A stretch of 50,824 bases of DNA, taken from NCBI GenBank assembly GCA_030668225.1, contig DAOUUI010000001.1:1-50824 (forward strand), in the 5' to 3' direction. Below, piece after piece: positions 11,142 through 50,646 of the stretch (positions are counted from its first letter, which is position 1; every line of letters begins with the position of its first letter). A program made the translations under genes and the position numbers. The notes under the pieces are model-generated. The model saw only the letters and a list, made by a program, of their open reading frames with translations, did no database searches and was not told the origin of the DNA. Source of the DNA: Deltaproteobacteria bacterium. Its GTDB lineage: Bacteria > Desulfobacterota > Deferrimicrobia > Deferrimicrobiales > Deferrimicrobiaceae.

Positions 11142-11181
11142 GTTGCCAAATGTCGCTCCTCTACCCGGAGGCATCGATCAT

Positions 11182-12816
11182 ATGGTTGAAAAAGAAACGA
11201 ATTATCTATCGAGGATATTGCGGAAACGGATCGAGACCCTCGGGTATACATCCCTCAAGAAATTCGTCGAGGACAAGAAGGATTTCCAGTACAGCTACGA
11301 ATTGCTCCGGCAGGTCGTGTACGGTGGGAGATTACCCCGGGCGGAAACCCTCCTCTCCATACTGCAGACAATGCGCTTCTCCCCCTCCCAGATCCATAAG
11401 TTGATGGATTTCCATTTCGGGGGATACCCAGGAGGCGGTACCGATAGCCCGGGGGAAACGGCAGGAATCCCTGATGCGGATAAACGGGAGCCGTTCTTCC
11501 GGCCGGAGAATCGGGAATCCTCGTCCACCGGGATCAAACTACTTGATGCCGACCCGAGCGGAGCACAAGCCGATCTATTGGCCGACTCCCCGGAAGAGAC
11601 CGCCATGAGCCTCAAGCAATCCCTTCCCAGGATTCCCTTCAAGGGGAACGAGGACTTCTGGGAGATGACACGGGCGCTCGCGCTGCAGGCCGAACGGAAG
11701 GCCTTGCGCATCGCGAGAAGGGAGGCGGACCAGCCGCTTCTTTTCGAGAAAGAGCCGGAGGCGATCTACCAGTTTCTCGTCCGGAAAGGGAAGGTTCCCT
11801 CGTACATGTCGAAAGGGGAGATGTTGTCGTTCGGATTCGTCGAGGGAGTCGACTACCGGGACCGCTACAGGGGCGCCCTGCTCGGCGCCGCGGTCGGTGA
11901 GATTCTGGGCAGGACTTCGCAAGGTCTGTCTCCCCGGGATATCCGGGAACTGTTCGGGGGAATCGATCAGGATTCGATGCCTACCGGGTGGGTCGGGGAA
12001 GGAAAGGAACTTGCCCCTCCCGCGTGCCTTCTTTTGTCCCGCGCGCTCCTTTCGGCCCGGAAACTCGATCCCGAGGGGATAGCCTCCGTCTACGCGAAAT
12101 CCCGACGACTGCCCGGGGCGGGACACCATGCGGAGTTCGTCCGCAATCTGCTCGACCGGGGATTCCCCTGGTTCGAGGCGGGAGCATCCGTTCCGGAAAC
12201 CGCTCCCTCGGCACGTGTCACTCCCCTTGCCCTTCTCCGCGCGGCAGACTTCCGCCGTCTGAAGATGGAAGCCGGGATCGAGGCTGCCGTCACCCACCCT
12301 CACGGAGCGGCGATCGCGGGAGCCATTGCTCAGACTGCCGCCATCGCACGGGTCCTGCACACGCCTGCAGGCACCCTCGACGTGCTGGGATTCGCCCGGG
12401 GGCTGTCCCACGCCGTATCCGGGATCGAAGCCGACCGATCCCCGCGAGGGAAAGGGGGGAAACCCGTTCCCACGCTCTGGAGGAAGCTCAGCACGGAGCT
12501 CACGGCACTTCTCCTCCGCCGGGCGGAGATGGAGGACGTCCAGGAGGCTCTCGGAAACGGAGCATCCGTTCCCGAGGGAGTTCCCTTCGCGTGGGCCTGT
12601 TTCCTTCGCTACCCCGACGATTACGCCGCCGCAGTGCTCGCAGCGGTGAACCTCGGCAACGAAGCGGAAGCCAACGGTGCGATGGTGGGAAGCCTCGCGG
12701 GGGCCTACGTCGGGGCGGCGGGAATCCCGGAGGCGTTTCTCACGGGTCTGTCGTGGCGGGAGGAGCTGGAAGCCTCGGCGGACGGGCTCCTCGCGCTCGC
12801 CCGCCGCGACTCCTGA
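11182..12816 (+). CDS. Fusion protein: N-terminal Cro/C1 (XRE)-type HTH, low-complexity linker, C-terminal ADP-ribosylglycohydrolase (ARH/DraG)-like domain with substituted metal-ligand motifs
   Basis: HTH: LSRILRKRIETLGYTSLKKFVEDKKDFQYSYELLRQVVYGGRLP. ARH-like: DRYRGALLGAAVGEILG (11863..11910) and LGNEAEANGAMVGSLAGAYVGAAGIP (12649..). Start at ATG 11182, with GGAGG 10 nt upstream. Confidence 0.7.
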   Translation: MVEKETNYLSRILRKRIETLGYTSLKKFVEDKKDFQYSYELLRQVVYGGRLPRAETLLSILQTMRFSPSQIHKLMDFHFGGYPGGGTDSPGETAGIPDADKREPFFRPENRESSSTGIKLLDADPSGAQADLLADSPEETAMSLKQSLPRIPFKGNEDFWEMTRALALQAERKALRIARREADQPLLFEKEPEAIYQFLVRKGKVPSYMSKGEMLSFGFVEGVDYRDRYRGALLGAAVGEILGRTSQGLSPRDIRELFGGIDQDSMPTGWVGEGKELAPPACLLLSRALLSARKLDPEGIASVYAKSRRLPGAGHHAEFVRNLLDRGFPWFEAGASVPETAPSARVTPLALLRAADFRRLKMEAGIEAAVTHPHGAAIAGAIAQTAAIARVLHTPAGTLDVLGFARGLSHAVSGIEADRSPRGKGGKPVPTLWRKLSTELTALLLRRAEMEDVQEALGNGASVPEGVPFAWACFLRYPDDYAAAVLAAVNLGNEAEANGAMVGSLAGAYVGAAGIPEAFLTGLSWREELEASADGLLALARRDS

Positions 12817-31971: not shown

Positions 31972-33329
31972 GTGTCACACAAGGGATTGAAATTAAAGAC
32001 TCTTCTGCGGAAATCCTCGATCGAGGAGAGGGCCCGGTTCGCCTGCCGCTCCTTCCGCTCCCGCTTCCTGCCTTCAGTGGGAAGAGGGAGAAGGCCGAAG
32101 TTGGCGTTCATCGGCTGGAACGATCCCCGGGGGAGGGTGGTGATGTGCCTCATCAGCGCCCCGATCATCGAATCTTCCGGAAATTCGGGGGGCTCCTTCC
32201 CGGCGACCCGCGCGGCGGCGGAGACTGCCGCAACGAACCCGGAGGCGATCGACTCCACGTACCCCTCGACCCCCGTGATCTGGCCCGCGAAGAAGAGTCC
32301 CTTCCGGTTCCTGTATTCCATGCTGGAATGGAGGTGACGGGGAGCGTCCAGGAAACTGTTGCGGTGAACCGACCCGTACCGGAGGAACTTCGCGCGACCG
32401 AGTCCCGGGATCAGGGAAAAAACCCGCTCCTGCTCGGGATAGGTGAGTTTCGTCTGGAACCCGACGAGATTGAACATCGTCCCCGCCTCGTTTTCCCTGC
32501 GAAGCTGGACGACGGCGTGCGGGATCCTTCCCGTCCGGGGGTCCCGGAGACCGACCGGCCGCATGGGTCCGAAGAGAAGCGTCTCTTCCCCGCGGCGGGC
32601 GAGAACCTCGACGGGCATGCACGATTCGAAGTACCGCTCCTCCTCGAATTCACGGGCCGGCACAACGCGCGCCGACATCAGGGCGGCGAAAAATGCCTCC
32701 CATTCGGGCCGCGTCATCGGGAAATTCAGGTAATCTCCCGATCCGGATCCGTACCGGTCGGCGAAAAATCCCCGGTGCGTGTCCAGAGAGGAAGCGTCCA
32801 CGATCGGGGAGATGGCGTCGTAGAAGTAGAGGCCCATTCCGCCGAGCAGTGTGCTGATGCTTCCCGAAATCTCCTCGGACGGAATCGGGCCGCAGGCGAT
32901 GATGACGACGGGATCGTCCGGGATCGTCCTCGCTTCCGCATCCACAACCCGGATGTTCCGACGGGCCCGCACCGTCCCGGTCACCGACTTTCCGAAGGCC
33001 TCCCTGTCCACCGCGAGTGCCTTCCCCGCAGGAACCCTGACCTGGTCGGCCACCCGGAGGAGATTGGACCCGAGAGTCCTGAGTTCGGCCTTCAACAGTC
33101 CCTTCCCGGAATCCGCCCGGTCCGCGCCCAGGGAGTTGCTGCAGACCAGCTCGGCGAACAGGCCGGTCTGGTGGGCGGGGGAGGAGACGCCTGGGCGCAT
33201 CTCGAACAGGTCCACCGGTGTCCCCGACGCGGACAGGACGAGCGCCGCCTCGGAACCGGCGAGCCCCGCCCCGACGACAGTGACCCGGGCGACGGAGTTG
33301 TCAGCTCCCGGCGATCGAGACGTCGCCAC
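31968..33329 (-). CDS. trmFO: Methylenetetrahydrofolate--tRNA-(uracil-5-)-methyltransferase TrmFO (Gid)
   Basis: VTVVGAGLAGSEAAL, AELVCSNSL, FAGQITGVEGYVES. Start placed at GTG 33329, the first in-frame start before the Rossmann motif, giving 453 aa. This overlaps the kinase gene by 29 nt. The track start at 33515 adds an S/P-rich extension. Confidence 0.88.
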   Translation of the reverse strand: MATSRSPGADNSVARVTVVGAGLAGSEAALVLSASGTPVDLFEMRPGVSSPAHQTGLFAELVCSNSLGADRADSGKGLLKAELRTLGSNLLRVADQVRVPAGKALAVDREAFGKSVTGTVRARRNIRVVDAEARTIPDDPVVIIACGPIPSEEISGSISTLLGGMGLYFYDAISPIVDASSLDTHRGFFADRYGSGSGDYLNFPMTRPEWEAFFAALMSARVVPAREFEEERYFESCMPVEVLARRGEETLLFGPMRPVGLRDPRTGRIPHAVVQLRRENEAGTMFNLVGFQTKLTYPEQERVFSLIPGLGRAKFLRYGSVHRNSFLDAPRHLHSSMEYRNRKGLFFAGQITGVEGYVESIASGFVAAVSAAARVAGKEPPEFPEDSMIGALMRHITTLPRGSFQPMNANFGLLPLPTEGRKRERKERQANRALSSIEDFRRRVFNFNPLCDT

Positions 33330-34983
33330 GGGATGATTCCACGAGCTCGGGGAGGAAGATCGAGAAGACGCTTCCGCCTCCCGGAGAGGAGCGGACTTCG
33401 ATGAATCCTCTGTGATAGTGGACGATCCTTTGGGATATCGCCAGGCCCAGCCCTGTCCCTTCCGGCTTGGAGGTGAAGAAGGGGTTGAAGATCTTTCCGA
33501 TGATGTCGGATGCAATACCGTTTCCCGTGTCGCTCACCGTAGTGACCACGTAACGTTGACGGTGTCGGATCTGTGAGAAGATGTCGATCGTCACGGAACC
33601 GCCGCGGGGAGTCGCCTGCAAAGCGTTGCGGACGAGGTTCCAGAGAACCTGTCTCAGTTGCTCCGCATCGCCTTCGACATGGTTGTCCATCGTCGCCAGA
33701 TCCTCCACGACCACGCCTTTTTCACGGGCCTCTCCCGCACATACCGCATCGACGATCTCCGACACCATCGCGGTCATGTTCACGGGCCCCACGTTCTTCA
33801 ACTTCGGCCCCGCGTACGCGAGAAAATCGGAGATGAGGCCGTTCAGACGGGTGCTCTCCCTCTCGATGATGTCGAGAAGGGTTTGGGAAATCTCCGGCAG
33901 GTCCGGCGTCTCGCGAAGCATCTGGGAGGACCCGGTGATGGAAGCCAGGGGGTTTCGTATCTCGTGGGCGAGACCCGCGGCAAGTTCCCCGACCGTCGCC
34001 AGCCGGTCGGCGATCCGAACCCGCTCCTCCATCTCCTTGACCGGGGTGAGGTCCTGGAAAATCACAACGCTACCTGTCACGGTACCGTCGGCGTCCTTCA
34101 TGGGGGAAGAGGAGAACCCGAGGAAAATCTCCGCCCCATCCGACCGACGAAAGACGATCTCCGGGCGCGGCATGGAAAAGTCGGTGCGGTCCTCCCCCTG
34201 GTCCAGCCCGGAAAGAACCTCCCCCACCGGCTTCCCCGTGACATCCCCCTTGCCGACACCGAGAATGGAGCACGCGGTGTCGTTGATCAGGCTCACCAGG
34301 CCTTGCGTGTCCACGGTCACGATCCCGGAGGGGATGTTATCCACGACGTGCTTGTGGAAGGTCTCCAGACTTTGCAGGACATTCTCCCGATCCTGCGTCC
34401 TATCGCGCGCCCTCCGGATGTCCTCCCCGAGGATCCCGGACAAGACCCCGGTCAGGATGAAGCCGAGGGAATTGATGAGGCTCGGCCGGAGGAACTGGGA
34501 CCACCCGAGATTCGTTGTCGTGGTACCGGGAGGAAACAGGACACCCCGAACCTGGAGGTAAAGGAGCGTCACGTAGGCAGCCGCCGAGAGCGCCGCCCAG
34601 ATCATCGCCCCCTTCATGTAAAGCTCCAGGCTCCCCAACAGGATGATGATGATGTACATGAACACGAAGACGCTGTCGTAGAGCCCGGTAGCAAAAATGA
34701 TGATGGAGACGAATCCCACGTCCACGAACGCCTGGAGGATGAGAAACGGCAGGGGAACCTCGCCGCCCCCCCAGAAGGCGTACCGGGCGAGCAGCCACCC
34801 GTACGACAGCACCGCGGCGACGTACAGATACTGGATTCCGACGGGAAAGACGAGTTCGGGCTCCCGGATCTGGACGGAGAGCGCCGACACCAGGAGAGCG
34901 AGGGTGACCCCCGATCGCAGCAGGAGGAGATTCCTGCCCTTGGCCTCCACTTCCTTCCGGCCCCGTCCGGGGACCGAGGACAA
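33301..34983 (-). CDS. pilS: Sensor histidine kinase, PilS-like (multi-TM N-terminus, PAS, HisKA, HATPase_c)
   Basis: About 6 hydrophobic helices, H-box GLAHEIRNPL, N/G boxes (NLVRNALQA, DTGNGI, GTGLGL). It sits immediately downstream of pilC. The symbol is assigned by context only. Confidence 0.7.
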   Translation of the reverse strand: MSSVPGRGRKEVEAKGRNLLLLRSGVTLALLVSALSVQIREPELVFPVGIQYLYVAAVLSYGWLLARYAFWGGGEVPLPFLILQAFVDVGFVSIIIFATGLYDSVFVFMYIIIILLGSLELYMKGAMIWAALSAAAYVTLLYLQVRGVLFPPGTTTTNLGWSQFLRPSLINSLGFILTGVLSGILGEDIRRARDRTQDRENVLQSLETFHKHVVDNIPSGIVTVDTQGLVSLINDTACSILGVGKGDVTGKPVGEVLSGLDQGEDRTDFSMPRPEIVFRRSDGAEIFLGFSSSPMKDADGTVTGSVVIFQDLTPVKEMEERVRIADRLATVGELAAGLAHEIRNPLASITGSSQMLRETPDLPEISQTLLDIIERESTRLNGLISDFLAYAGPKLKNVGPVNMTAMVSEIVDAVCAGEAREKGVVVEDLATMDNHVEGDAEQLRQVLWNLVRNALQATPRGGSVTIDIFSQIRHRQRYVVTTVSDTGNGIASDIIGKIFNPFFTSKPEGTGLGLAISQRIVHYHRGFIEVRSSPGGGSVFSIFLPELVESSRGDVSIAGS

Positions 34984-34985
34984 AC

Positions 34986-36197
34986 CTACCCCCCCACGAC
35001 GCCGGCCAGCTTGAAGATCGGAAGGTACATCGCGATTACAAGCCCTCCGATGACCACCCCGAGGAAGATCATGAGCATCGGCTCCAGGAGGGAGGTTAGC
35101 GCCCCCACTGCAGAATCGACCTCATCGTCGTAGAAATCCGCGATCTTATTGAGCATCGTATCGAGAGCGCCTGTTGCTTCCCCCACGCTGACCATCTGGG
35201 TCACCATGACGGGGAAGACCTTGCTGTCCGCAAGCGGTTCCGCGATCGTCTTTCCCTCGCTGATGCTCGTCCGGGCCTTGAGGATGGCCTCTTCGATGAT
35301 CTTGTTCCCCGCGGACTTTGCCACGATGTCCATGCTCTCCAGGATCGGGACACCGCTGGAAACCATCGTCCCCAGCGTGCGTGAGAACCGGGCCACTGCG
35401 ATCTTCCGGAGGAGATCGCCAAAGATCGGCACCCGGAGGAGGAGTCGGTCGATCCTGCGGCGTCCGTTTTCCTGCTTGTAGTACCAGCGGATGCCCATGA
35501 CCAGCAGCACGAGCAGTACGACGCCGACCAGAAAATATTTCCGGGTATAGGCACTGATGGCAAGGACGAACTGGGTAGGCACGGGAAGAGTTGCCCCGAA
35601 ATCATCGAACATCGCTCCGAAGATCGGGATCACGTAAACGAGCAGGACCACGGTCACGATGAGGGCGACCGCGAGAATCGTCGAGGGATACACCATCGCG
35701 CTCTTGACCTGCTTGGCGAGCTTCATCGCTTTCTCGATGTAGGCGGCAAGGCGCGACAGGATCGTGTCGAGGATACCGCCCACCTCCCCGGCGGAGACCA
35801 GGTTGACAAAGAGCTCATCGAACACGTGCGGGTGCTTGCCCAGCGCGTCCGCGAAGGTCGAACCGCTCTCCACGTCCTCTTTCACTTTCAGGATCACCTT
35901 CTTGAATGCCTGGTTCTCCTGCTGCAGCCCGAGGATGTCCAGACATTGGACCAGCGGAAGTCCCGCATCGATCATCGTGGCGAACTGCCGCGTGAATATC
36001 GCCAGTTCCCTCTTCGAGACCTTCCCCCTCCGACCGAGGAGACGGAAACCCAGATCCCTCGGTTTGGGCTTGATCTTCACAGGAACGATCTGCTGCCGGC
36101 GGAGTTGCGCGATGACAAAGGCCTCGTTCGGGGCCTCGATCTCTCCCGTCATCGTTCCGCCTACCCTGGTCTTTCCTTCCCACATGAATTTTCCCAT
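34986..36197 (-). CDS. pilC: Type IV pilus assembly platform protein PilC (GspF family)
   Basis: 403 aa with duplicated GspF domains (FTRQFATMIDAGLPL / FSRTLGTMVSSGVPI). Confidence 0.9.
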   Translation of the reverse strand: MGKFMWEGKTRVGGTMTGEIEAPNEAFVIAQLRRQQIVPVKIKPKPRDLGFRLLGRRGKVSKRELAIFTRQFATMIDAGLPLVQCLDILGLQQENQAFKKVILKVKEDVESGSTFADALGKHPHVFDELFVNLVSAGEVGGILDTILSRLAAYIEKAMKLAKQVKSAMVYPSTILAVALIVTVVLLVYVIPIFGAMFDDFGATLPVPTQFVLAISAYTRKYFLVGVVLLVLLVMGIRWYYKQENGRRRIDRLLLRVPIFGDLLRKIAVARFSRTLGTMVSSGVPILESMDIVAKSAGNKIIEEAILKARTSISEGKTIAEPLADSKVFPVMVTQMVSVGEATGALDTMLNKIADFYDDEVDSAVGALTSLLEPMLMIFLGVVIGGLVIAMYLPIFKLAGVVGG

Positions 36198-36218: not shown

Positions 36219-37322
36219 CTACACCTTCCTGCCGAGGGATTGCGAGACCCCGGAAGCGGGAGACGCCGACAACAGGTTCCTGAATTCCTCGGGGTCGGAG
36301 CTCCTCCCGACCGCGTCGTCCAGTGATATGTTCCGCTTGAGATATGCTGCGAGAATGGACTGGTTCATGGTTTGCATTCCGAACTTGGCCTGCCCCACCT
36401 GCATCTGGGAGTAGATCTGGTGGACCTTCTCCTCCCGGATCAGGTTCCGGATGGCGGCGTTCGGGATCATGACCTCCAGCGCCAGGACCCGCCCACCGCC
36501 CGACGCCTTGGGGATGAGGATCTGCGACATCACTCCCTCGAGGACAAACGACAGCTGGGCACGCACCTGCGGCTGCTGGTAGGGCGGAAAAACGTCCAGG
36601 ATGCGGTTGATCGTCTGGACAGCCGAGTTCGTATGGAGGGTCGCGAACACCAGGTGCCCCGTCTCCGCCACGGTCAGGGCAGCCTCGATCGTCTCGAGGT
36701 CCCTCATCTCGCCGATGAGGACGACGTCCGGGTCCTGCCGCAGGATGTATTTCAAGGCCCTCTTGAAGCTCTGGGTATCCGCGTTCACCTCACGCTGGTT
36801 GACGAGGCACTTCTTGTGGGGATGCAGGTACTCGATCGGGTCCTCGACCGTGACAATGTGTTCCTGGCGCTCCGAGTTGATCTTGTCGATCATCGCGGCG
36901 AGCGTCGTCGACTTCCCTGATCCCGTCGGCCCGGTCACCAGGACAAGCCCCCTCGGCTTCTTGCACAACTCCCTGGCCACCATGGGAAGTCCCAGATCAT
37001 CGAACGACCGGATCTTGAACGGAATCGTGCGGAACGCTCCGGCCGCGGCTCCGCGCTGCATGTAGATGTTCGCCCGGAAACGGCTCAGGCCCTTCACGCC
37101 GAAGGAGAGGTCAAGCTCCCAATCCTCCTCGAAACGCTGCTTCTGCGCCTCCGTCAGGATGCTGTAGCAGATACGCTTCGTATCCTGCGGGGTCAGCGGT
37201 TCGGAGGGAAGCGGAAGAAGCCTGCCGTCGATACGTACCGTGGGGGGGACCCCGGTCGTGATGTGGAGATCCGACGCTCCCTTTTCGTACATCGCGCTCA
37301 GAAGATCGTGTATCGTTAACAT
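36219..37322 (-). CDS. pilT: Type IV pilus retraction ATPase PilT
   Basis: ASDLHIT, Walker A GPTGSGKSTT, AIRNLIRE. Confidence 0.9.
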   Translation of the reverse strand: MLTIHDLLSAMYEKGASDLHITTGVPPTVRIDGRLLPLPSEPLTPQDTKRICYSILTEAQKQRFEEDWELDLSFGVKGLSRFRANIYMQRGAAAGAFRTIPFKIRSFDDLGLPMVARELCKKPRGLVLVTGPTGSGKSTTLAAMIDKINSERQEHIVTVEDPIEYLHPHKKCLVNQREVNADTQSFKRALKYILRQDPDVVLIGEMRDLETIEAALTVAETGHLVFATLHTNSAVQTINRILDVFPPYQQPQVRAQLSFVLEGVMSQILIPKASGGGRVLALEVMIPNAAIRNLIREEKVHQIYSQMQVGQAKFGMQTMNQSILAAYLKRNISLDDAVGRSSDPEEFRNLLSASPASGVSQSLGRKV

Positions 37323-37347: not shown

Positions 37348-39045
37348 TCAATCCGGAGCCGTCACGCGCAGAACCTCGTCGAGGGTCGTCATCCCTTCCT
37401 CCACCTTCGTCAGGCCTGCCTGCCTGAGCGTCTTCATGCCCAGGCGGAAGGCTTCGCGCTTGATGTCAAGCGCCGACCCTCCACGCAGGACGAGATCCTT
37501 GATCTCCTCCCGGACCGGCATCACTTCATAGAGGGCAACACGCCCCCGGAACCCCGTCCTGGTGCACTCCTCACACCCCTTTCCCTTCCGCAGCTGTACA
37601 TGCTTGAGCCGATCGGGATTCATCCCGGCGTCGACAAGCGCCTTCGGGGGTATCTTGATCTCCTCGCTGCAGTTCGCGCACACCCTCCGGGTCAGCCGCT
37701 GGGCGACGATCAGATTGAGCGACGAGGAGACGAGAAACGGCTCGATTCCCATGTTGAGCATACGGGTCACGGTGCTTGGGGCGTCGTTCGTGTGAAGGGT
37801 GGAGAGGACGAGGTGGCCGGTGAGGGCGGCCTTCACGCCGATCTCGGCCGTCTCGTAATCGCGGATCTCGCCCACCATGATGATGTCCGGGTCCTGCCGC
37901 AGGAAGGATCGGAGAGCGGACGCGAAGGTGAGCCCGATCTCGTCCCTGACATGTACCTGGTTGATCCCGGCGAAGTTGTACTCCACCGGATCCTCGCACG
38001 TGGAGATGTTTTCGCTCGTCTTGTTCAGGTCCGACAGGGCGGAATACAGGGTCGTCGTTTTTCCCGAACCGGTAGGACCGGTAACCAGGACCATACCGTA
38101 GGGCAGGTGGATCGCCTCCGTGAAATACTTCAGCTGGTCCGGCTCGAATCCGAGCTTGGTCATGTCGAGCTGCAGGCTGGACTTGTCCAGGAGACGAAGG
38201 ACGGTCTTTTCCCCGTAGATCGTGGGCAGGGTGGAAACACGGAAATCCATCTCCCTCCCCTTCCCGATTTTCAACTTGATCCTGCCATCTTGCGGAAGCC
38301 GACGTTCCGCGATGTCGAGGGAGGCCAGGATCTTGAGCCGCGAGGAGATGGCGTTACGCATTTTCAGCGGCGGACGCATCATCTCGTACAACACGCCGTC
38401 TACGCGGTACCGGACCCGGAACTCCTTCTCGTAAGGCTCGACGTGGATGTCCGATGCCCTTCTTTTGATTGCGTCCGTCAGGATGAAGTTGACGAGCTTG
38501 ACCACGGGAGCATCGTCCAGGCCGCGCTCGATCTCGGATATGTCGACTTCCTCCTCATGGACGACTTCCAGCTCTTCGTCCAGCTCCGAGATGATGTCCT
38601 TGAACTCGAGGGACTGGTCGAAGAACTTGTTGATGGCGGTGGCGATTTCCTTCTCGGAGGCAAGCACGAGTTCCACGGCGTAGCCGGTCTTGAACCCGAT
38701 GGCGTCCAGGATTGCCATATTGGAGGGATCCGCAACCGCGACGATCAGCTTCGCCCCGACCCGGTTGATCGGGAGCGCCAGGTTCTTCTGGACCATCTCC
38801 TCGGGAAGGAGGCGGACCACTTCCGGATCGATCTCGTACTTGGAGAGGTCGACCACCGGGATGTTGAACTGCCTGCCGAGAAAGGAGAGCAGTTCGGCCT
38901 CCTGGATGGACCCCGCCTTCACGAGGACCGCTCCGATCCGCTCTCGGGTCTTTTTCTGGGTATCGAGAGCGGTCCGGAGCTGCTCCTGCGTAATGATATT
39001 CCCTTTCAGGAGCATTTCCCCGATCTTAGTGGCCATTACGGACAT
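37348..39045 (-). CDS. pilB: Type IV pilus assembly ATPase PilB (GspE family)
   Basis: 565 aa. N-terminal MshEN/GSPII domain, Walker A GPTGSGKTTT, tetracysteine CxxC...CxxC (CANCSEE, CEEC). Confidence 0.92.
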   Translation of the reverse strand: MSVMATKIGEMLLKGNIITQEQLRTALDTQKKTRERIGAVLVKAGSIQEAELLSFLGRQFNIPVVDLSKYEIDPEVVRLLPEEMVQKNLALPINRVGAKLIVAVADPSNMAILDAIGFKTGYAVELVLASEKEIATAINKFFDQSLEFKDIISELDEELEVVHEEEVDISEIERGLDDAPVVKLVNFILTDAIKRRASDIHVEPYEKEFRVRYRVDGVLYEMMRPPLKMRNAISSRLKILASLDIAERRLPQDGRIKLKIGKGREMDFRVSTLPTIYGEKTVLRLLDKSSLQLDMTKLGFEPDQLKYFTEAIHLPYGMVLVTGPTGSGKTTTLYSALSDLNKTSENISTCEDPVEYNFAGINQVHVRDEIGLTFASALRSFLRQDPDIIMVGEIRDYETAEIGVKAALTGHLVLSTLHTNDAPSTVTRMLNMGIEPFLVSSSLNLIVAQRLTRRVCANCSEEIKIPPKALVDAGMNPDRLKHVQLRKGKGCEECTRTGFRGRVALYEVMPVREEIKDLVLRGGSALDIKREAFRLGMKTLRQAGLTKVEEGMTTLDEVLRVTAPD

Positions 39046-43784: not shown

Positions 43785-43869
43785 CGGGGAACGATCCTTC
43801 CAGGGCAGACGCAAGCAGACGCGCGCCCCGTCTCCGGACGAGAGAGCCTTCGACCGGGGAAGAGCGGGG

Positions 43870-44226
43870 TCAGACGCTCTGTGCGAAGTAGGAAAGCGCC
43901 TCTTCTTCCGAATCGAATGCCCGGACGTACCGGGAGACACCGGTGATCCGGAGAAGCTCCTGGTTGATCCGGTTGAGCGAGCAGAACGCAAGCGTTCCCT
44001 GTCGTTCCGTCATCCGCTCCACGACCCCGATGATGGAGGAGATCCCGATGCTGTTGATGAGTCTGGTCCTCTCGAAGTTGAGGACGACCCTCGGCCGTTC
44101 GGCGTCCAGTACGTCATGAATCACCCGCTCCAATTCCTTCCCCGTGCGGCTGTTCAAGTATCCGTTGACGTACACGACAGATGTCCCCTCGCCCGCTTCC
44201 CTCGTTTTCACTGTCCAATCGCTCAC
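43870..44226 (-). CDS. STAS-domain anti-sigma-factor antagonist (SpoIIAA/RsbV-like)
   Basis: 118 aa. VVLNFERTRLINSIGISSIIGV has Ser59 (codon 44052..44050) at the canonical phospho-acceptor position. The ATG is 4 nt after the stop of the upstream kinase-fusion gene. Confidence 0.85.
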   Translation of the reverse strand: MSDWTVKTREAGEGTSVVYVNGYLNSRTGKELERVIHDVLDAERPRVVLNFERTRLINSIGISSIIGVVERMTERQGTLAFCSLNRINQELLRITGVSRYVRAFDSEEEALSYFAQSV

Positions 44227-44230
44227 GTCA

Positions 44231-46525
44231 TTATCCCTCGTCGTCTGGTGTTGTGCTTCCTTCGCCGGTCCCGTGCCGGAGATTCTTCACCATCCGTACC
44301 GTCGTCCCCTGCTCTCCCGTGGTGATATCCACATCGTCAACCAGCTCGCTGATCAGCTTGAGCCCCCATCCCCGGTTTCGTTTCGACTCGTCGCCGGCCG
44401 AAGACGGACGGAACCCCTTTCCCTCGTCCTGAACGAACAACTCGATCCGTTCGGGGGAGAGGATGTACCGGAGGCGGACTTTCCCCGCCTCCGACCCGCT
44501 GTGCTCGAACGCGTTGATACAGGCTTCGATGATCGCCATCTTGATCTGGTCCACCGTATCCTTGTCCACCGCCGCGTAGGCCGCCACCTCTTCCGCCACC
44601 CGCGCGGCCACGATCTCCGTGTCCGCCTTTATCGGCAGGACAAGCTCGAACTCCAGCGGCTTCTCGTCCGCCCGTGTCTCCGGCGGAGGCTTCTCTTCCT
44701 TCCCCTTCTCCAGTTCCTGCATCCCGAACAGGTTGAGAAAAAAGCGCATCTGCGTCCGGTGGGTCAAATAAATCCCGTACCGGTCCGAAAGCTCCACGAT
44801 CACGGGATCCGCGGCGCCATCGAAGAGAATCCATTTTCGGAGCTGATCCGGATTCAGGCCTTTGTCCAGGCTCAGCAGCCGGCATCGGTTCTCGAAATGT
44901 TCCACCGCGGCATGCTTAAGGGTCTTCTCCGTGTTTACATCCACGGCCCAGATGACCAGGTTCTCTTCGGAGAAGTCGCCGTCCTGGAATCCGTACGCGA
45001 CGAGGTCGAAATCGAACCGGCTCCCGCCGCGGAGGGTCCGGTATCCCGTCGATACCGAACTGATCTTGGGAAGTCGTACCTTCCCTGCATCCTCCTCCAG
45101 CCCGATCACGATTTCCAGGAGCCCTTTTTCGCGGAACCTCTCCTGAAATTTTCCGAAGTCGAACAGGAGAGCGGGCACCTCCCGGCAGTCCCACCGCCGC
45201 ATCATTTCCTTCGCCACCTCGGCGCTCTCCTCTTGCGCCTCCCGATCTCCCTCCACCAGGCTGCCGGAGATCTTCGCTTGCACGATGCTCGCCGCGACCT
45301 GCGACGTGTTCTTTCCCAGGACGCCGCGCTCAAAAGCCCAGAAAAGGAAATCGGAGAGGACCGGATCGCGGATGAACTCGATGTGCTCGAAGTCGGACTT
45401 GAGCAACCCCTTGAATTCAAGGGCCGAGAGGATCTCCCCCCCCTCCTCCGGCGTAGTCCCCAGCAGCGAGAACGCCCCCTCGAACGTGTCGATCGGGAAC
45501 TGGTCGAACATGACCCGCTTCAGGAACTTGATGGCGCGGGCCCGATTTACGCGGTCCGGAATGGCGTTTTCGAAAAATTCCCTCCAGTACCGGTTTAGCT
45601 TCCCTTCGGTAATGGAGAACGCGAACAGGTTCTCGAACGCCACCTCGTCCTCGATCTGGGCGTTCCGGAAGGACACCTCCTCGGCGAACATCCTCTGGTA
45701 GATGGGAACGTGGCCGAGCCGGGCCGCCGCACGGACCATCAGGTGCTCCGGCATCCGGATCTTCCTCCGCTCGAAGAGAGGGGCCCACGCCCTCACCGAG
45801 TCATCCGGGGAGAGCCCGCCGACCTCGAGCAGTTGGAACGAACCGTACAACCCCTCCCGCTTGAGGGACGACGTTACGTGCCCGGGGGAGGAGCCGGAGA
45901 CGATCATCGGGAAATGGCCGGACTTGATGTAGGGGCGGAGGATGGAAAAGATCGCCCCCTCGGGAATGTTCTGAAGTTTAATCGTATACTGGAAGTCGTC
46001 GAAGAGGAAAACGGGGTACAGCAGGTCCCCCCCCGTGGCGAACGGGAAGGAGAAGGCGTTCGCCAGGGCGGAAAGGCCGTCCCCTTTCTCCGAGTACCGA
46101 CGGTGGGCGGACAGGAAATCCCGGCATTCCGTGTGCCCGCGAGCGGTCAGACTCTCGCACAGGGCATCGAGGTCAAACGCCGCGGGGGGCGATTCCCCCA
46201 GGAAGGCAAGAAGTTGCCAGAGGTATTCCTGAAGGAAATGCTGGGAGAGGGCAAGCGGGTGGGACAGGATATTGCTGAACGAATAATAGAATGCGAAAGG
46301 GGACGGCGGCGCGGCGCTCTCCGGAAGCAACTTCAGCTCCGATTTGAGCTTCAGGAGGAGGGAGGATTTTCCGATGTTCGGCGGGCCGTAGAGGAGGACC
46401 GATGCCCCGATGCCGGATTTTCCTTCCAGGCATACCCGCAGAAGGGATGTCAGTTCCTCCTCGCGGCCGAAGAACTCCCCCGGGCGAAACGAAAACTCCG
46501 CCCCCTGGCTCCACAAGAGACGCAC
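44231..46525 (-). CDS. Multidomain protein: N-terminal AAA/Arch_ATPase-like P-loop NTPase, about 400 aa of unassigned region, and a C-terminal RsbW/SpoIIAB-type anti-sigma serine kinase (HATPase_c_2)
   Basis: FFGREEEL..LLYGPPNIGKSSLL (Walker A, 46364..46387), VFLFDDF (Walker B). C-terminal N-box EACINAFEH (44527..44501), DEGKGF, GWGLKL. Start set to GTG 46525 because the upstream in-frame extension to 46711 would overlap the divergent radical SAM gene. The exact start is uncertain. Confidence 0.75.
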   Translation of the reverse strand: MRLLWSQGAEFSFRPGEFFGREEELTSLLRVCLEGKSGIGASVLLYGPPNIGKSSLLLKLKSELKLLPESAAPPSPFAFYYSFSNILSHPLALSQHFLQEYLWQLLAFLGESPPAAFDLDALCESLTARGHTECRDFLSAHRRYSEKGDGLSALANAFSFPFATGGDLLYPVFLFDDFQYTIKLQNIPEGAIFSILRPYIKSGHFPMIVSGSSPGHVTSSLKREGLYGSFQLLEVGGLSPDDSVRAWAPLFERRKIRMPEHLMVRAAARLGHVPIYQRMFAEEVSFRNAQIEDEVAFENLFAFSITEGKLNRYWREFFENAIPDRVNRARAIKFLKRVMFDQFPIDTFEGAFSLLGTTPEEGGEILSALEFKGLLKSDFEHIEFIRDPVLSDFLFWAFERGVLGKNTSQVAASIVQAKISGSLVEGDREAQEESAEVAKEMMRRWDCREVPALLFDFGKFQERFREKGLLEIVIGLEEDAGKVRLPKISSVSTGYRTLRGGSRFDFDLVAYGFQDGDFSEENLVIWAVDVNTEKTLKHAAVEHFENRCRLLSLDKGLNPDQLRKWILFDGAADPVIVELSDRYGIYLTHRTQMRFFLNLFGMQELEKGKEEKPPPETRADEKPLEFELVLPIKADTEIVAARVAEEVAAYAAVDKDTVDQIKMAIIEACINAFEHSGSEAGKVRLRYILSPERIELFVQDEGKGFRPSSAGDESKRNRGWGLKLISELVDDVDITTGEQGTTVRMVKNLRHGTGEGSTTPDDEG

Positions 46526-46613
46526 TATAAAAATACCCGGAACAAGGTCTTCATCCGGACTAATGTAACTTGAACGGCTTGATTTTTCAAAAAAATAGTG
46601 GACACTCGCGGCA

Positions 46614-49115
46614 ATGGGAAATATTCCTGATTTCGTAAAAAAACCTTCGCGGTATAGCGGAGCCGAAGTAAGGCCCGCTCTCCTTCCGTGGGAAGAGGCG
46701 GAAACCCGCATTCTCCTGGCCTTCCCGGATGTCTACGAGATCGGCATGTCGCACCTCGGCATCCTCCTGCTTTACGAGCTTCTCAACGCCCGGCGGAAAA
46801 CGCTCTGCGAGCGGGTCTTTGCGCCCTGGAGAGACATGGAGGAGCACCTGCGAGACACAGGGGCACCCCTCCTCGCGCTCGAATCCGGGCGGCCCGCCCG
46901 CGATTTCGACGTGCTCGGGTTCTCCCTAAGCTACGAACTGACCTACACGAACGTTCTGGCCATGCTCGAGCTGGCCGGGATCCCCCTCGTTCACCGGGAG
47001 CGCGGAGAGAGCGATCCGCTTGTCCTGGCGGGAGGCGTCTGCACCCTCAACCCGGCACCCGTGGCGGAATTCTTCGACGCTCTCCTCGTTGGCGACGGCG
47101 AAGAGGCGATCCTGGAAATCGTGGAACTGGTGGAGGAGAGGAAGAGGCGAAACGGGAAAAGGGTCGAACTGCTCCGCAACCTGTCTGCGATCAAGGGGGT
47201 TTACGTCCCGGAGGTCTCCACGACGGTTTCCCGAAGAGTCCTTCCCGACCTGGCGGATTCGCCCCTTACCTCCTCCCCCATCCTGCCCGCAATGCGCGTC
47301 GTGCACGACCGTCTGAGCGTCGAGATCTCCCGGGGATGCACCCGCGGGTGTCGGTTCTGCCAGGCGGGATACGTGTACCGGCCCGTCCGGGAGAGAGACC
47401 CGAAGCGATTGCTTCGCTATCTCCAGGAAGTCGCGCCGAAGACCGGCTACGACGAGATCGGCCTTCTTTCGCTTTCGGCAGCAGACTACGGCTGCATCGA
47501 CCGGTTGATCACCGACGCCATGGAGACCCTCTCCCCCGAGAGAATCTCCCTGTCCCTCCCGTCCCTTCGGATGGATGCGCTCCGGGAGAATACCGTTCGA
47601 GAGATCCGGAAAGTCCGGAAGAGCGGATTCACGCTCGCGCCGGAGGCCGGAACGGAGAGGCTCCGCCGGACCATCAACAAGGAGATGGGCGATGGCGACC
47701 TGTTGCGCGCGGCCGAGTGGATATTCGCCAACGGATGGCAGACGCTCAAGCTCTATTTCATGGTAGGTCTTCCGGGGGAGACGGCGGAGGACGTCCGGGC
47801 AATCGGGGAACTGATCCGGAAGGTGGCCGCGGTCGCACGCCGGCACGGAAAGCGGAATTCCGTGACTGCGAGCGTCTCATCCTTCATCCCCAAGCCGCAC
47901 ACTCCCTTCCAGTGGGAGCGGCAGATCGGAAGGGAGGAAACCAGGGAGCGCGTGGGGATCATCCGGGCGGCGGTCGGACGGGACCGGAACGCGGACGTCA
48001 AGTTTCACTCGCCGGAAGTTTCCGAACTGGAGGGTACCTTTTCGCGCGGAGACAGCCGCCTCTCCGCGGTAATCCTTTCCGCCTATCGCCGGGGTGCGAG
48101 ATTCGATGCATGGACCGAGGAGTTCCGTCCGGATGCATGGAGCGAGGCGTTCCGGGAAGCGAGGATCGACCCCGCCTCGTACCGACGGGAACGGGATCCG
48201 GCCGCTCCGCTGCCCTGGGACATGGTGGACGCGGGGATCGACCGGGACTTCCTTCTGTCCGAACGGGAGAAAATGCGCGCGGAAGAGACGACGCCCGATT
48301 GCCGCGCGGACGGGATATGCGCTTCCTGCGGTGCATGTCCCCCGGGCATTGCCAACATCACCTATTCCCCCGGTCCGGTTCGGGAGGACGGGGAGAACGC
48401 GCACCGGCAGGCGCCCGACGCGGATCCCCGAAGCGACAGCGGAGTCCGTCATATCGTGCGAATACGGTATGCCAAGGAGGGCCCGGCAAGAACCCTGAGC
48501 GGCCTGGAGATCCAATCCCTGTGGGGGCGATCCCTGCGCCGGGCCGGGTTCCCCGTGGCGTACAGCCAGGGATACAATCCCGCTCCCCGGCTGTCCTTTT
48601 CCCACGCCCTCCCCGTCGGTACGGAAAGCCTCGCGGAGTACGTGGAGACGGAATTTCGTTTCCCCGTTCCTCCGGCCGAGATCGAAAGGAAACTCCCTCC
48701 CTGTCTCCCCCGCGGGATCTCCCTCGGGGAAGTCCGGCAGGTGCCCCCGGGGACACCGCGGCTCTCCGACTTCGACCTGTCCTGCTGCTACGCCATCCAC
48801 CCGGTCCCCCCCCACTCAACGCCGGAGGAGATCACCCCGAAAAGGGTGGAGGCGGCATGGCGCACCTTCCGTGCTTCCTGCGGATTTCCGATGGTCGTAG
48901 AGAAGGAGAGGGGCAGATCCGAGATCGATCTCAAACCGCTGGTCACCAATTTCTTGGTGAACGGGGAGGCCCTCTTCATTACAATCATTCATGGAACCGG
49001 CAAGGGGGCCCGGCCGCTCGACGCAGCGGGTGCGATTCTGGGGAATGCGCTTCCGCCCCGCCGATTCTCGGTAAAAAAGTTGTCTGCCGATTTTATTCCC
49101 CGTCGGAAGGAATAA
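46614..49115 (+). CDS. Radical SAM protein, fusion of a TIGR03960-like B12-binding-domain/radical SAM module with a TIGR03936 (DUF2344)-like C-terminal module
   Basis: FVKKPSRYSGAEV start, CTRGCRFCQAGY (CxxxCxxC). The C-terminal VRIRYAKEGPARTLSGLEIQSLWGRSLRRAGFPVAYSQGYNP resembles DUF2344. Confidence 0.85.
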   Translation: MGNIPDFVKKPSRYSGAEVRPALLPWEEAETRILLAFPDVYEIGMSHLGILLLYELLNARRKTLCERVFAPWRDMEEHLRDTGAPLLALESGRPARDFDVLGFSLSYELTYTNVLAMLELAGIPLVHRERGESDPLVLAGGVCTLNPAPVAEFFDALLVGDGEEAILEIVELVEERKRRNGKRVELLRNLSAIKGVYVPEVSTTVSRRVLPDLADSPLTSSPILPAMRVVHDRLSVEISRGCTRGCRFCQAGYVYRPVRERDPKRLLRYLQEVAPKTGYDEIGLLSLSAADYGCIDRLITDAMETLSPERISLSLPSLRMDALRENTVREIRKVRKSGFTLAPEAGTERLRRTINKEMGDGDLLRAAEWIFANGWQTLKLYFMVGLPGETAEDVRAIGELIRKVAAVARRHGKRNSVTASVSSFIPKPHTPFQWERQIGREETRERVGIIRAAVGRDRNADVKFHSPEVSELEGTFSRGDSRLSAVILSAYRRGARFDAWTEEFRPDAWSEAFREARIDPASYRRERDPAAPLPWDMVDAGIDRDFLLSEREKMRAEETTPDCRADGICASCGACPPGIANITYSPGPVREDGENAHRQAPDADPRSDSGVRHIVRIRYAKEGPARTLSGLEIQSLWGRSLRRAGFPVAYSQGYNPAPRLSFSHALPVGTESLAEYVETEFRFPVPPAEIERKLPPCLPRGISLGEVRQVPPGTPRLSDFDLSCCYAIHPVPPHSTPEEITPKRVEAAWRTFRASCGFPMVVEKERGRSEIDLKPLVTNFLVNGEALFITIIHGTGKGARPLDAAGAILGNALPPRRFSVKKLSADFIPRRKE

Positions 49116-49116
49116 G

Positions 49117-50646
49117 ATGGAAAAAGGAAACAAGCTCATCGTCATCAACTCCGCCCCGTACGAGACGCGCGTCGCGACGCTCGAATCCGGGATCCTCGTT
49201 GATTTCCTCCTCGAACGCGGTGACGACCGGGACATCATCGGCAACATCTTCAAGGGGAAGGTCATCCGCGTCCTCCCGGGGATGCAGGCCGCCTTCGTGG
49301 ATATCGGGATCGAGAAGGCGGGGTTCCTGTACGCCGGCGACTTCGTTACCCCCCGGCTCGAGTTCGACTCCGACGAACACGGGAATGAGGACCACGCGGA
49401 AGACATCGACATCCACGAGGCCCGGTTCCCCCGGGAGCAGTTCATCCCCCCGATCGAGGGATTGATCCGGGAGGGCCAGCATCTCATCGTGCAGGTGGCC
49501 AAGGAGCCACTGGGGACCAAGGGGGCGCGGATCACCAGCCACATCACTCTCCCCGGCAGGTACCTCGTGCTCCTCACCTGGTCCGGGCACATCGGCATTT
49601 CCCGACGGATCGAGGATCCCGTGGAGCGGGAGAGGCTCCACGAGATCGTGGAAAAGATCCGCCTGAACGGGATGGGAGCCATCGTCCGTACCGCGGCGGA
49701 GGGAAAAACGGATTCCGAAATGAAGGCGGACATGGATTACCTGGTCCACCACTGGGACACGATCCGGAAGAAGGGCGAGGCTGCGAGCGCTCCCGCCCTT
49801 ATTCATCGCGAGCTCTCCCTTTCCCTCCGTGCCGTGCGCGACATGTTCACCGCGGACATGGACAGGATCGTCGTCGACTCGGAGGAGGAACACCTCCGCA
49901 TCCGGGAATTCGCGTCCCAGTTCTTTCCCGGCCTGCGGGACCGGATCGAGCTGTTCCAGGGGGGCCAGCCGATCTTCGAGCATTACGGCATCGAGATCGA
50001 GCTCGCCCGGGCCCTCGACAAGAAGGTATGGCTGAAAAGCGGTGGCTACATCGTGATCGAGCAGACCGAGGCGCTCACCGTCATCGACGTCAACACCGGG
50101 AAATACGTGGGCCGATCCTCCCTCGAGGAGACGACCGCCAAGATCAACCTCGAGGCGGTGAAGGAGATCGTCTACCAGCTCCGCCTGCGCAACATCGGCG
50201 GGATCATCATCATCGATTTCATCGACATGAAGACCGAGGAGAACCGGGAGAAGGTGTACCAGACGCTCGTCGACGCTTTACGCGCCGACAGGAGCAAGAC
50301 GACTATCTGCAAGATCTCGGAGCTCGGCCTTGTCGAGATGACGCGCAAGCGGGTGCGGGAGAGCCTCTCCCGCTCGCTTTCGGAAGCGTGTCCCTACTGC
50401 TCGGGAGAAGGGATCATCAAGTCGAAGAAGACGATCTGCTACGAGATTTTCCGTGCATTCGAGCGCCAGGCGCCCCTCCTGGCGGGGAAGCAGGCTTCCC
50501 TGTACGTCCACCCTGCGCTCGCGGAGGAGATGTTCGGCGAGCATCGCCGTTTCATCGAGATGATCGAGAACCGGTTCGGGATGAAGGTGAACATCTCCGC
50601 CTCCGAGAAGTTCCACGTCGAGCAGTATCAGATCGAGATTTCCTGA
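49117..50646 (+). CDS. rng: Ribonuclease G / RNase E-G family endoribonuclease
   Basis: 509 aa. S1 domain (GNIFKGKVIRVLPGMQAAFVDIG), VIDVNTGK, IIIIDFIDM, and a CPYCSGEG zinc link. Confidence 0.9.
   Translation: MEKGNKLIVINSAPYETRVATLESGILVDFLLERGDDRDIIGNIFKGKVIRVLPGMQAAFVDIGIEKAGFLYAGDFVTPRLEFDSDEHGNEDHAEDIDIHEARFPREQFIPPIEGLIREGQHLIVQVAKEPLGTKGARITSHITLPGRYLVLLTWSGHIGISRRIEDPVERERLHEIVEKIRLNGMGAIVRTAAEGKTDSEMKADMDYLVHHWDTIRKKGEAASAPALIHRELSLSLRAVRDMFTADMDRIVVDSEEEHLRIREFASQFFPGLRDRIELFQGGQPIFEHYGIEIELARALDKKVWLKSGGYIVIEQTEALTVIDVNTGKYVGRSSLEETTAKINLEAVKEIVYQLRLRNIGGIIIIDFIDMKTEENREKVYQTLVDALRADRSKTTICKISELGLVEMTRKRVRESLSRSLSEACPYCSGEGIIKSKKTICYEIFRAFERQAPLLAGKQASLYVHPALAEEMFGEHRRFIEMIENRFGMKVNISASEKFHVEQYQIEIS

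Follow-up and report, generated by a model that had tools for sequence, protein, structure and literature searches.

What does a serine kinase of the anti-sigma-factor type control when neither a sigma factor nor a PP2C phosphatase is encoded beside it? The question is raised by two adjacent genes in a stretch of 50,824 nucleotides from a Deltaproteobacteria bacterium of the family Deferrimicrobiaceae (GenBank assembly GCA_030668225.1, contig DAOUUI010000001.1, positions 1 to 50,824 of the forward strand), which was analysed at its full length and is called the window below. One gene encodes a protein of 764 amino acids (aa) in which an N-terminal nucleoside triphosphatase (NTPase) is joined to a C-terminal kinase of the RsbW/SpoIIAB type, and the other encodes a STAS protein of 118 aa. 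Partner switching mostly takes its input from receiver or PP2C/stressosome modules, and its classic output is a sigma factor. An examination of the letters alone, hereafter the sequence-only reading, had called the locus an orphan module, which holds for the window but not for the family, where it is accompanied by a PocR-GAF-GGDEF cyclase and a GAF-HD-GYP phosphodiesterase. We propose, with a probability of roughly 0.6, that the pair is a partner-switching core whose ancestral output was the turnover of cyclic di-GMP (c-di-GMP) and which has been reduced to kinase and STAS protein in the window.

The evidence that carries this proposal comes from the gene neighbourhoods of relatives. The survey took one genome per species and covered the best 80 of at least 591 relatives, all 80 of them full-length and together representing at least six phyla (Acidobacteriota with Blastocatellia, Pyrinomonadaceae and Chloracidobacterium, Thermodesulfobacteriota/'Deltaproteobacteria', Rokubacteriota, Sumerlaeota, Brocadiaceae and others). 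Neighbours were counted with local hidden Markov models (HMMs) seeded from Pfam-annotated neighbours, at loci with enough flanking sequence. Two distant members, lying in unrelated genomic contexts, first displayed the four genes of what proved to be a conserved same-strand cluster: PocR-GAF-GGDEF, NTPase-kinase, STAS and GAF-HD-GYP. The GGDEF gene is immediately upstream of the NTPase-kinase gene in 66 of 71 loci, the STAS gene directly downstream in 65 of 78, and an HD-GYP-type gene follows STAS in 59 of 72; all four are present in 48 of 66. The cluster keeps to one strand throughout, and the apparent gaps between its genes have medians of -4, 19 and 37 bp. Pfam recognised GGDEF and GAF in every cyclase partner (32/32 each) and PocR in all but one (31/32), with a GGEEF motif and an RxxD site, and recognised HD_5 in all 37 phosphodiesterase partners and GAF in 25 of them, with the HHExxDGxGYP motif intact. 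This conserved operon makes control of c-di-GMP the most likely ancestral output.

The other flanking open reading frames (ORFs) were clustered as well, and yielded no sigma factor, no PP2C within the operon and no fifth gene shared across phyla. Recurrent flanks are lineage-specific only, namely an Opp transporter with an FHA/serine-threonine protein kinase (STPK)/PP2C block in Acidobacteriota and secDF/recJ in Thermodesulfobacteriota. The fusion recurs, and the third partner, for which the sequence-only reading had named a sigma factor, a PP2C or an effector as candidates, is represented by the GGDEF and HD-GYP proteins. In many acidobacterial genomes (for instance at the loci L038 14453..16117, L049 11378..12364 and L014 2270..4759) an FHA protein, an STPK-FGE-sulfatase fusion and a PP2C are found downstream on the opposite strand. 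This block holds the sole PP2C near the module, is confined to acidobacterial loci and is probably unrelated to the four genes.

That the kinase gene is a genuine fusion can be stated with confidence. Its minus-strand ORF (44231..46711) is uninterrupted and would give 826 aa if read from the first ATG. The GTG at 46525 is the biologically sensible start, since the resulting 764 aa agree with the N-termini of homologues (MRLLW..., 761-765 aa) and since the upstream ATG would make the gene overlap the divergent radical-SAM gene that begins at 46614. The ORF listing and the homologues thereby bear out the single frame of about 764 codons originally described. Two genes joined by an assembly error, the objection that had been anticipated, are ruled out by more than 100 independent full-length homologues and by the reproduction of the locus in two independent assemblies. 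A word-indexed search returned 128 matches (clusters at 90% identity, more than 120 of them full-length) from metagenome-assembled genomes of Deferrimicrobiaceae, 'Deltaproteobacteria' and Thermodesulfobacteriota, the non-truncated ones having about 760-780 aa and 48-98% identity. A HMMER search with residues 1-617, from which the kinase had been left out, gave 187 representatives. Distant relatives (20-27% identity, 730-830 aa) align over residues ~16-600 and carry HATPase_c_2 at their end in 59 of 60 cases, and because even these still end in this domain the three-part architecture must be old and conserved. Such relatives of the same architecture occur in Acidobacteriota, Thermodesulfobacteriota, Rokubacteriota, Sumerlaeota and Brocadiaceae. 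Short-form relatives of 510-560 aa (e.g. P0132, P0156) also exist, in which the NTPase and winged helix are joined directly to HATPase_c_2 (18 of 42 members) and the nuclease-fold domain discussed below is missing.

The assignment of the C-terminal part as a GHKL kinase with all its boxes was upheld. HATPase_c_2 matches with an E-value of 2.3e-23, its score of 83.1 bits exceeding the cut-off of 27.4, and the N-box (EACINAFEH), G1 (DEGKGF) and G2 (RGWGLKL) are intact. Residues E667, N671, G702, G719 and G721 show little or no variation within the clade of the window, and E667, N671 and the G2 box are conserved throughout the family. The domain matches RsbW 6m36 in phmmer (E 4e-7), and the C-terminus of the structural model matches 6m36, 1th8 and 1l0o (RsbW, SpoIIAB) in Foldseek, with target-normalised template-modelling (TM) scores of 0.73-0.90.

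The downstream ORF is a STAS protein (PF01740, E 5.3e-11, 42.7 bits against a cut-off of 22.6; TIGR00377 reaches 47.2 bits, slightly under its cut-off of 53.45). Its GTG follows the kinase stop codon after four nucleotides (tgac), exactly as first reported, and this spacing suggests translational coupling. Ser59 lies in LINSIG (44041..44061) and had been placed at the phospho-acceptor position, which is corroborated by phmmer: its counterpart in SpoIIAA is Ser58, the first of the two serines in MDSSGLG, which is mutated to Ala in 1tid/1til. The motif N-S-[IV]-G is invariant in 67 of 67 partner STAS proteins from all phyla sampled.

These resemblances speak for a classical anti-sigma system, in which the kinase would sequester a sigma factor encoded elsewhere, the unphosphorylated STAS protein would free it and the NTPase would be an added sensor. 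By sequence as well as by fold the kinase indeed matches RsbW and SpoIIAB best, the STAS protein is closest to SpoIIAA, and the window locus has no c-di-GMP enzyme. Against this stands the finding that no sigma-factor family recurs in the neighbour clusters that the surveyed loci share, nor in the 12 loci whose genes were annotated with Pfam, while GGDEF and HD-GYP genes are tightly linked. The curated equivalog models also score far under their cut-offs (PRK04069 for RsbW, 51.2 against 145 bits; TIGR01924, 40.6 against 155; TIGR01925 for SpoIIAB, 37.5 against 135); in NCBIfam the matches to RsbW, RsbA and SpoIIAB are all partial and below threshold, and none of its curated families covers the NTPase-kinase fusion. 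As stated from the outset, neither a sigma-factor nor a PP2C gene is found in the window among its ~45 genes, most of which we take to be what their translated sequences indicate and 13 ambiguous ORFs of which were searched with Pfam. We consider such an anti-sigma system unlikely.

The isolation of the pair in the window is explained by recent gene loss. Across the Deferrimicrobia-like clade the locus is flanked on one side by divergent radical-SAM (DUF2344) and RNase G genes and on the other by AP_endonuc_2, GntR, SelA, HNH, AroE and PilB/T/C, a synteny kept down to 48% identity, and the upstream GGDEF gene is absent from the locus throughout this clade. At 48%, 69%, 70% and 86% identity relatives have an HD-GYP gene next to STAS on its downstream side, HD_5 being present in L088 and L089; the gene is absent at the locus in relatives at 60% and 64% identity and in the window. 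When the window is compared by blastn with its 86%-identical relative L088, 1.46 kb containing the GAF-HD-GYP gene (L088 8681..10136) is seen to correspond to about 64 bp. An identical HD-less junction is found in the independent assemblies L092 and L093 (98% and 89% relatives), and the deletion is therefore real and recent. Complete metagenome-assembled genomes with the reduced locus include GCA_049645285.1 and GCA_975957445.1. Between the window and L093, both HD-less, the kinase gene has an omega of 0.14 and the STAS gene one of 0.25, with all domains between 0.08 and 0.34. The reduced pair is thus under purifying selection and, judged by this signature, probably still functional. Closely related genomes with and without the HD-GYP partner, in both of which the pair is selected, constitute a natural experiment, and the window pair can be regarded as a real, probably functional, reduced copy whose target is to be sought elsewhere in the genome. 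In another member of the clade (P0108, locus L091, 53% identity) STAS, HD-GYP and AP_endonuc_2 are lost, GntR directly follows the NTPase-kinase gene, and the G1 and G2 boxes are substituted (EEGHAG, HGRGLEL). What might pass for degenerate kinases in P0106 and P0108 amounts to a few substitutions in G1/G2.

After the loss of its c-di-GMP partners the pair might instead have been rewired locally, with the type IV pilus (MshEN-PilB) and radical-SAM/RNase G as candidates. The synteny with radical-SAM/RNase G and GntR-SelA-HNH-AroE-PilB/T/C could be taken as a sign of this, as could the faster divergence of STAS than of the kinase (identity to L088 is 70% for STAS and 86% for the kinase, and omega for STAS is 0.40). 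The window PilB, moreover, has an MshEN domain (PF05157, E 1.4e-24), and MshEN is a c-di-GMP-binding domain. Across the clade a distance of 5-10 kb separates the pilus genes from the module; in the window they are PilB (37348..39045, minus strand), pilT (36219..37322), pilC (34986..36197) and a gene for a PilS-like kinase (33301..34983), and a functional link is possible. The same synteny is, however, present in relatives that retain HD-GYP and may therefore be the vertical inheritance of a housekeeping region; nothing indicates a direct link, and local rewiring is in our estimation improbable.

The N-terminal module is what sets this kinase apart. Pfam finds AAA_16 just above its cut-off (E 4.4e-8, 34.2 against 32.6 bits) and ATPase_2/Arch_ATPase below it (E 8.8e-6, 26.1 against 33.2 bits), so that the profiles expected for the two proteins were obtained for HATPase_c_2, AAA_16 and STAS and fell short for Arch_ATPase. 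Walker A (GPPNIGKS) and Walker B (VFLFDDF) are intact, G52, K53, D176 and D177 are invariant across the clade of the window, and the position originally given for Walker A proved correct on checking. A full-length AlphaFold2 model was built from 33 homologues, with a mean predicted local distance difference test (pLDDT) score of 78. Its residues ~1-400 find 2QEN as top match in Foldseek (E 1.4e-8, target-normalised TM 0.61, 409 columns), followed by Cdc6/Orc1 (1fnn, 2v1u and 2qby; E about 1e-6 to 1e-5, 424-455 columns), and the NTPase part further matches CED-4/Apaf-1, a plant NLR and clamp-loader subunits. Helices (240-371) and a beta hairpin (375-384) are modelled in the lid and winged-helix region at a pLDDT of 85-94. 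In the predicted structure residues ~1-400 are an ORC/Cdc6/Arch_ATPase-like AAA+ core with helical lid and winged helix. The ORC-like assignment of the NTPase is thereby supported, and about half of the ~400 residues that the sequence-only reading could not assign is accounted for as lid and winged helix by the matches to 2QEN and Cdc6/Orc1.

The middle domain was modelled separately (residues 425-612) and reached a pLDDT of 63, below that of the full-length model. With E-values of 4.5e-3 to 0.5, its best Foldseek matches are Cdn1, Card1, AF1548, MspJI, Mus81, VC1899, Can2 and Hjc; it also resembles the nuclease domain of Avs4. It is marked by the motifs RLPKISSVS, FDFDLVAYGF, VIWAVDV and EHFENRCR. 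The stretch FDFDLVAYG...VIWAVDV had been likened to DUF234/PD-(D/E)xK modules. The nuclease part of this comparison receives weak but consistent fold matches, whereas no DUF234 and no catalytic motif could be found: Pfam searches of the middle region at E<=10 in 18 members gave no usable family and a single NA-iREase3 match (E 0.15, 1/18), and the canonical D...(D/E)xK motif is not present in the domain, the residue at +2 after D529 being N, V or A and never Lys. D505, D507, D529, E542 and E545 are invariant in the clade of the window only, and the wider family has hydrophobic or small residues in place of D507 and D529. We tentatively regard the modelled domain as a non-catalytic, degenerate restriction-endonuclease-fold domain, tentatively because of the lower pLDDT of the domain-only model.

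One may speculate that an AAA+ fold resembling STAND proteins (CED-4, Apaf-1, plant NLR), coupled to a domain that resembles the nuclease domains of Card1, Can2, Cdn1, MspJI and Avs4 and once even matches NA-iREase3 faintly, belongs to an anti-phage or conflict system of the STAND/Avs type, in which the NTPase would sense the invader and the nuclease-fold domain or the kinase would be the effector. This explanation is rejected because PADLOC models match neither protein. It is further contradicted by the missing nuclease motif and the acidic residues that are not conserved family-wide, by vertical inheritance, a housekeeping context and linkage to signalling enzymes rather than defence islands, and by strong purifying selection with no sign of diversification, all of which render it highly implausible. 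Equally hard to credit is a decaying remnant, functionless since GGDEF and HD-GYP were lost, for although both c-di-GMP genes are missing from the locus and P0108 has lost STAS too, both ORFs are intact, the catalytic motifs and Ser59 are kept, and omega between the two HD-less genomes is low.

According to the c-di-GMP reading that we prefer, the C-terminal kinase would phosphorylate Ser59 of the co-translated STAS protein, and the phosphorylation state of STAS would select its binding partner. The N-terminal AAA+/winged-helix/restriction-endonuclease-fold module would gate the kinase, responding to its nucleotide state, to oligomerisation or to a bound ligand. By attaching to the cyclase, the phosphodiesterase or both, for which the gene cluster and analogous systems argue, STAS would control synthesis and/or breakdown of c-di-GMP. 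In the window, kinase and STAS protein presumably act in trans on a target encoded elsewhere in the genome.

Several observations weigh against this reading. The connection to c-di-GMP relies on gene order alone, and GGDEF and HD-GYP HMMs find no match in the 50.8-kb window even at E<=10. The GGDEF and NTPase-kinase genes occur without the other two at 12 of 66 loci, with the kinase motifs intact, and adjacency of STAS is therefore not obligatory. The conserved operon contains no phosphatase that would reset the switch. Of 88 loci across the wider family, 55 have V, A, S or L in place of the Walker A lysine, and 56 of 60 carry Asn or Ser at the position of the G1 aspartate of the kinase, so that NTP hydrolysis is not universally required; the clade of the window keeps both canonical residues. 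The restriction-endonuclease fold, finally, relies on the domain-only model at pLDDT 63 and on weak Foldseek E-values. Loci with a replaced Walker A lysine include nearly all of those that lack an adjacent STAS gene, and some loci of the latter kind carry a STAS gene 2-5 kb away. Integrity of the kinase motifs does not track the adjacent STAS gene, a relation that was considered and rejected, as E, N and G2 are kept in 13 of 14 loci without it.

More specifically, the four-gene operon can be pictured as a self-contained c-di-GMP toggle, in which STAS, depending on the state of Ser59, would activate or inhibit cyclase and phosphodiesterase, a sensor made of NTPase and inactive nuclease would gate the kinase, and no PP2C would take part. 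We offer this picture tentatively, as a possible elaboration rather than an expected one. If true, it would constitute a previously undescribed class of partner switching, and one that is widespread among Acidobacteriota, Thermodesulfobacteriota, Deferrimicrobia and further phyla that have been little studied. Members of the family are found in lineages that abound in soils and sediments (Pyrinomonadaceae, Blastocatellia, Thermodesulfobacteriota, Deferrimicrobia) and whose signalling is almost unexplored.

Table 1. Features of the kinase-STAS locus; positions refer to the window.
Feature	Position	Strand	Basis
NTPase-winged helix-restriction-endonuclease-like-RsbW kinase gene, 764 aa	44231..46525 (stop 44231..44233)	-	ORF, homologue starts, Pfam, AlphaFold2 model
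AAA+ P-loop NTPase core, residues ~17-220	45866..46477	-	FFGREEEL, GPPNIGKS (46364..46387), VFLFDDFQ; Pfam and Foldseek
AAA+ helical lid and winged helix, residues ~221-400	45326..45865	-	Foldseek, secondary structure of the model, omega 0.08
Helical linker, residues ~401-480, most variable part	45086..45325	-	Secondary structure, lower pLDDT, omega 0.34
Restriction-endonuclease-fold (PD-(D/E)xK-like) domain, residues ~481-606, tentative	44708..45085	-	Domain model and Foldseek
Disordered linker before the kinase domain	44660..44707	-	
RsbW/SpoIIAB-type GHKL serine kinase domain, residues ~623-750	44276..44659	-	HATPase_c_2, phmmer, Foldseek
STAS protein, 118 aa, presumed kinase substrate	43870..44226	-	PF01740; Ser59 codon 44050..44052
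HD-GYP deletion scar, ~64 bp	43785..43848	.	blastn against the 86%-identical relative L088
Weak sigma-70-like promoter match, TTGAAA-17-TACATT	46562..46590	-	Consensus scan of the 88-bp divergent intergenic region

The promoter match listed in Table 1 is the one site found in that scan against 0.6 expected by chance and is uninformative on function, and a terminator scan gave none that was convincing. The radical-SAM (46614..49115) and RNase G (49117..50646) genes are separate neighbouring genes in the window; in the relative L003 (3858..7892) radical-SAM (Radical_SAM_N2/DUF2344) and RNase G are annotated as one fusion product of 1344 aa. Elsewhere in the window (11143..12816, plus strand) a protein of 557 aa has an ADP-ribosylglycohydrolase domain at residues 244-530, and its N-terminal ~240 residues have no Pfam match.

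The individual parts of the module have clear counterparts in known systems. Like RsbW/RsbV and SpoIIAB/SpoIIAA of Bacillus, the pair displays the kinase fold with N, G1 and G2 boxes, the STAS fold, the aligned serine and the adjacency of the genes; unlike them it has no associated sigma factor or PP2C, the kinase has 764 aa against about 140-160, and the phospho-site motif is N-S-I-G where the Bacillus proteins have D-S-S-G. The N-terminal part shares FxGRExEL, Walker A and B, lid and winged helix with the archaeal (Pyrococcus) 'Walker-type ATPase' PABY2304 (2QEN) and with ORC/Cdc6, and differs from 2QEN/Arch_ATPase in that ATPase_2 stays sub-cut-off, DUF234 gives no match and the protein continues into a restriction-endonuclease-fold domain and a GHKL kinase.

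The closest functional parallels are found among systems that regulate c-di-GMP. In the HptB-HsbR-HsbA-HsbD system of Pseudomonas aeruginosa the multidomain RsbW-type kinase HsbR phosphorylates the STAS protein HsbA at Ser56, and HsbA-P binds and acts through the diguanylate cyclase HsbD, which is encoded nearby (PMC5085249). HsbR is both kinase and phosphatase and has a receiver domain as input (PMC5085249), and it qualifies the view, taken by the sequence-only reading, that canonical RsbW/SpoIIAB kinases are small single-domain proteins. The module described here resembles HsbR/HsbA-HsbD in combining a multidomain RsbW-type kinase with a STAS protein, and the output of HsbR/HsbA-HsbD is c-di-GMP, not only a sigma factor. 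The input here is an AAA+ NTPase/winged-helix/restriction-endonuclease-fold module and no phosphatase is present, unlike in HsbR; the conserved operon also adds an HD-GYP phosphodiesterase, and its cyclase is a soluble PocR-GAF-GGDEF protein.

In BgrSTUWV-BgrR of Sinorhizobium meliloti and SiaABCD of P. aeruginosa, the kinases BgrW and SiaB set the phosphorylation of the STAS or STAS-like proteins BgrV and SiaC, which bind and regulate the co-encoded GGDEF cyclases BgrR and SiaD, and SiaABCD has the dedicated phosphatase SiaA (PMC8457831). The likeness lies in a kinase and a phosphorylatable STAS or STAS-like protein encoded together with a GGDEF cyclase, and it holds for the family, not for the window itself. 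BgrU is the phosphatase of the Bgr system. Compared with Bgr and Sia as summarised in PMC8457831, where we saw no accessory domains described for their kinases, the module here has no conserved phosphatase, an N-terminal kinase extension of ~620 residues and a co-encoded phosphodiesterase.

There are thus known precedents both for multidomain RsbW-type kinases and for STAS outputs that do not involve a sigma factor. A description of the fusion was not found in the searchable literature, the coverage of which is incomplete, in agreement with the initial impression that the system had not been characterised. The module differs from the known c-di-GMP partner-switching systems in the lack of a conserved phosphatase, in the co-encoded HD-GYP protein and in an input module of a kind new to them. 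If the proposed wiring is true, the family would provide a compact device for setting c-di-GMP locally in response to an input of a type previously undescribed for such systems.

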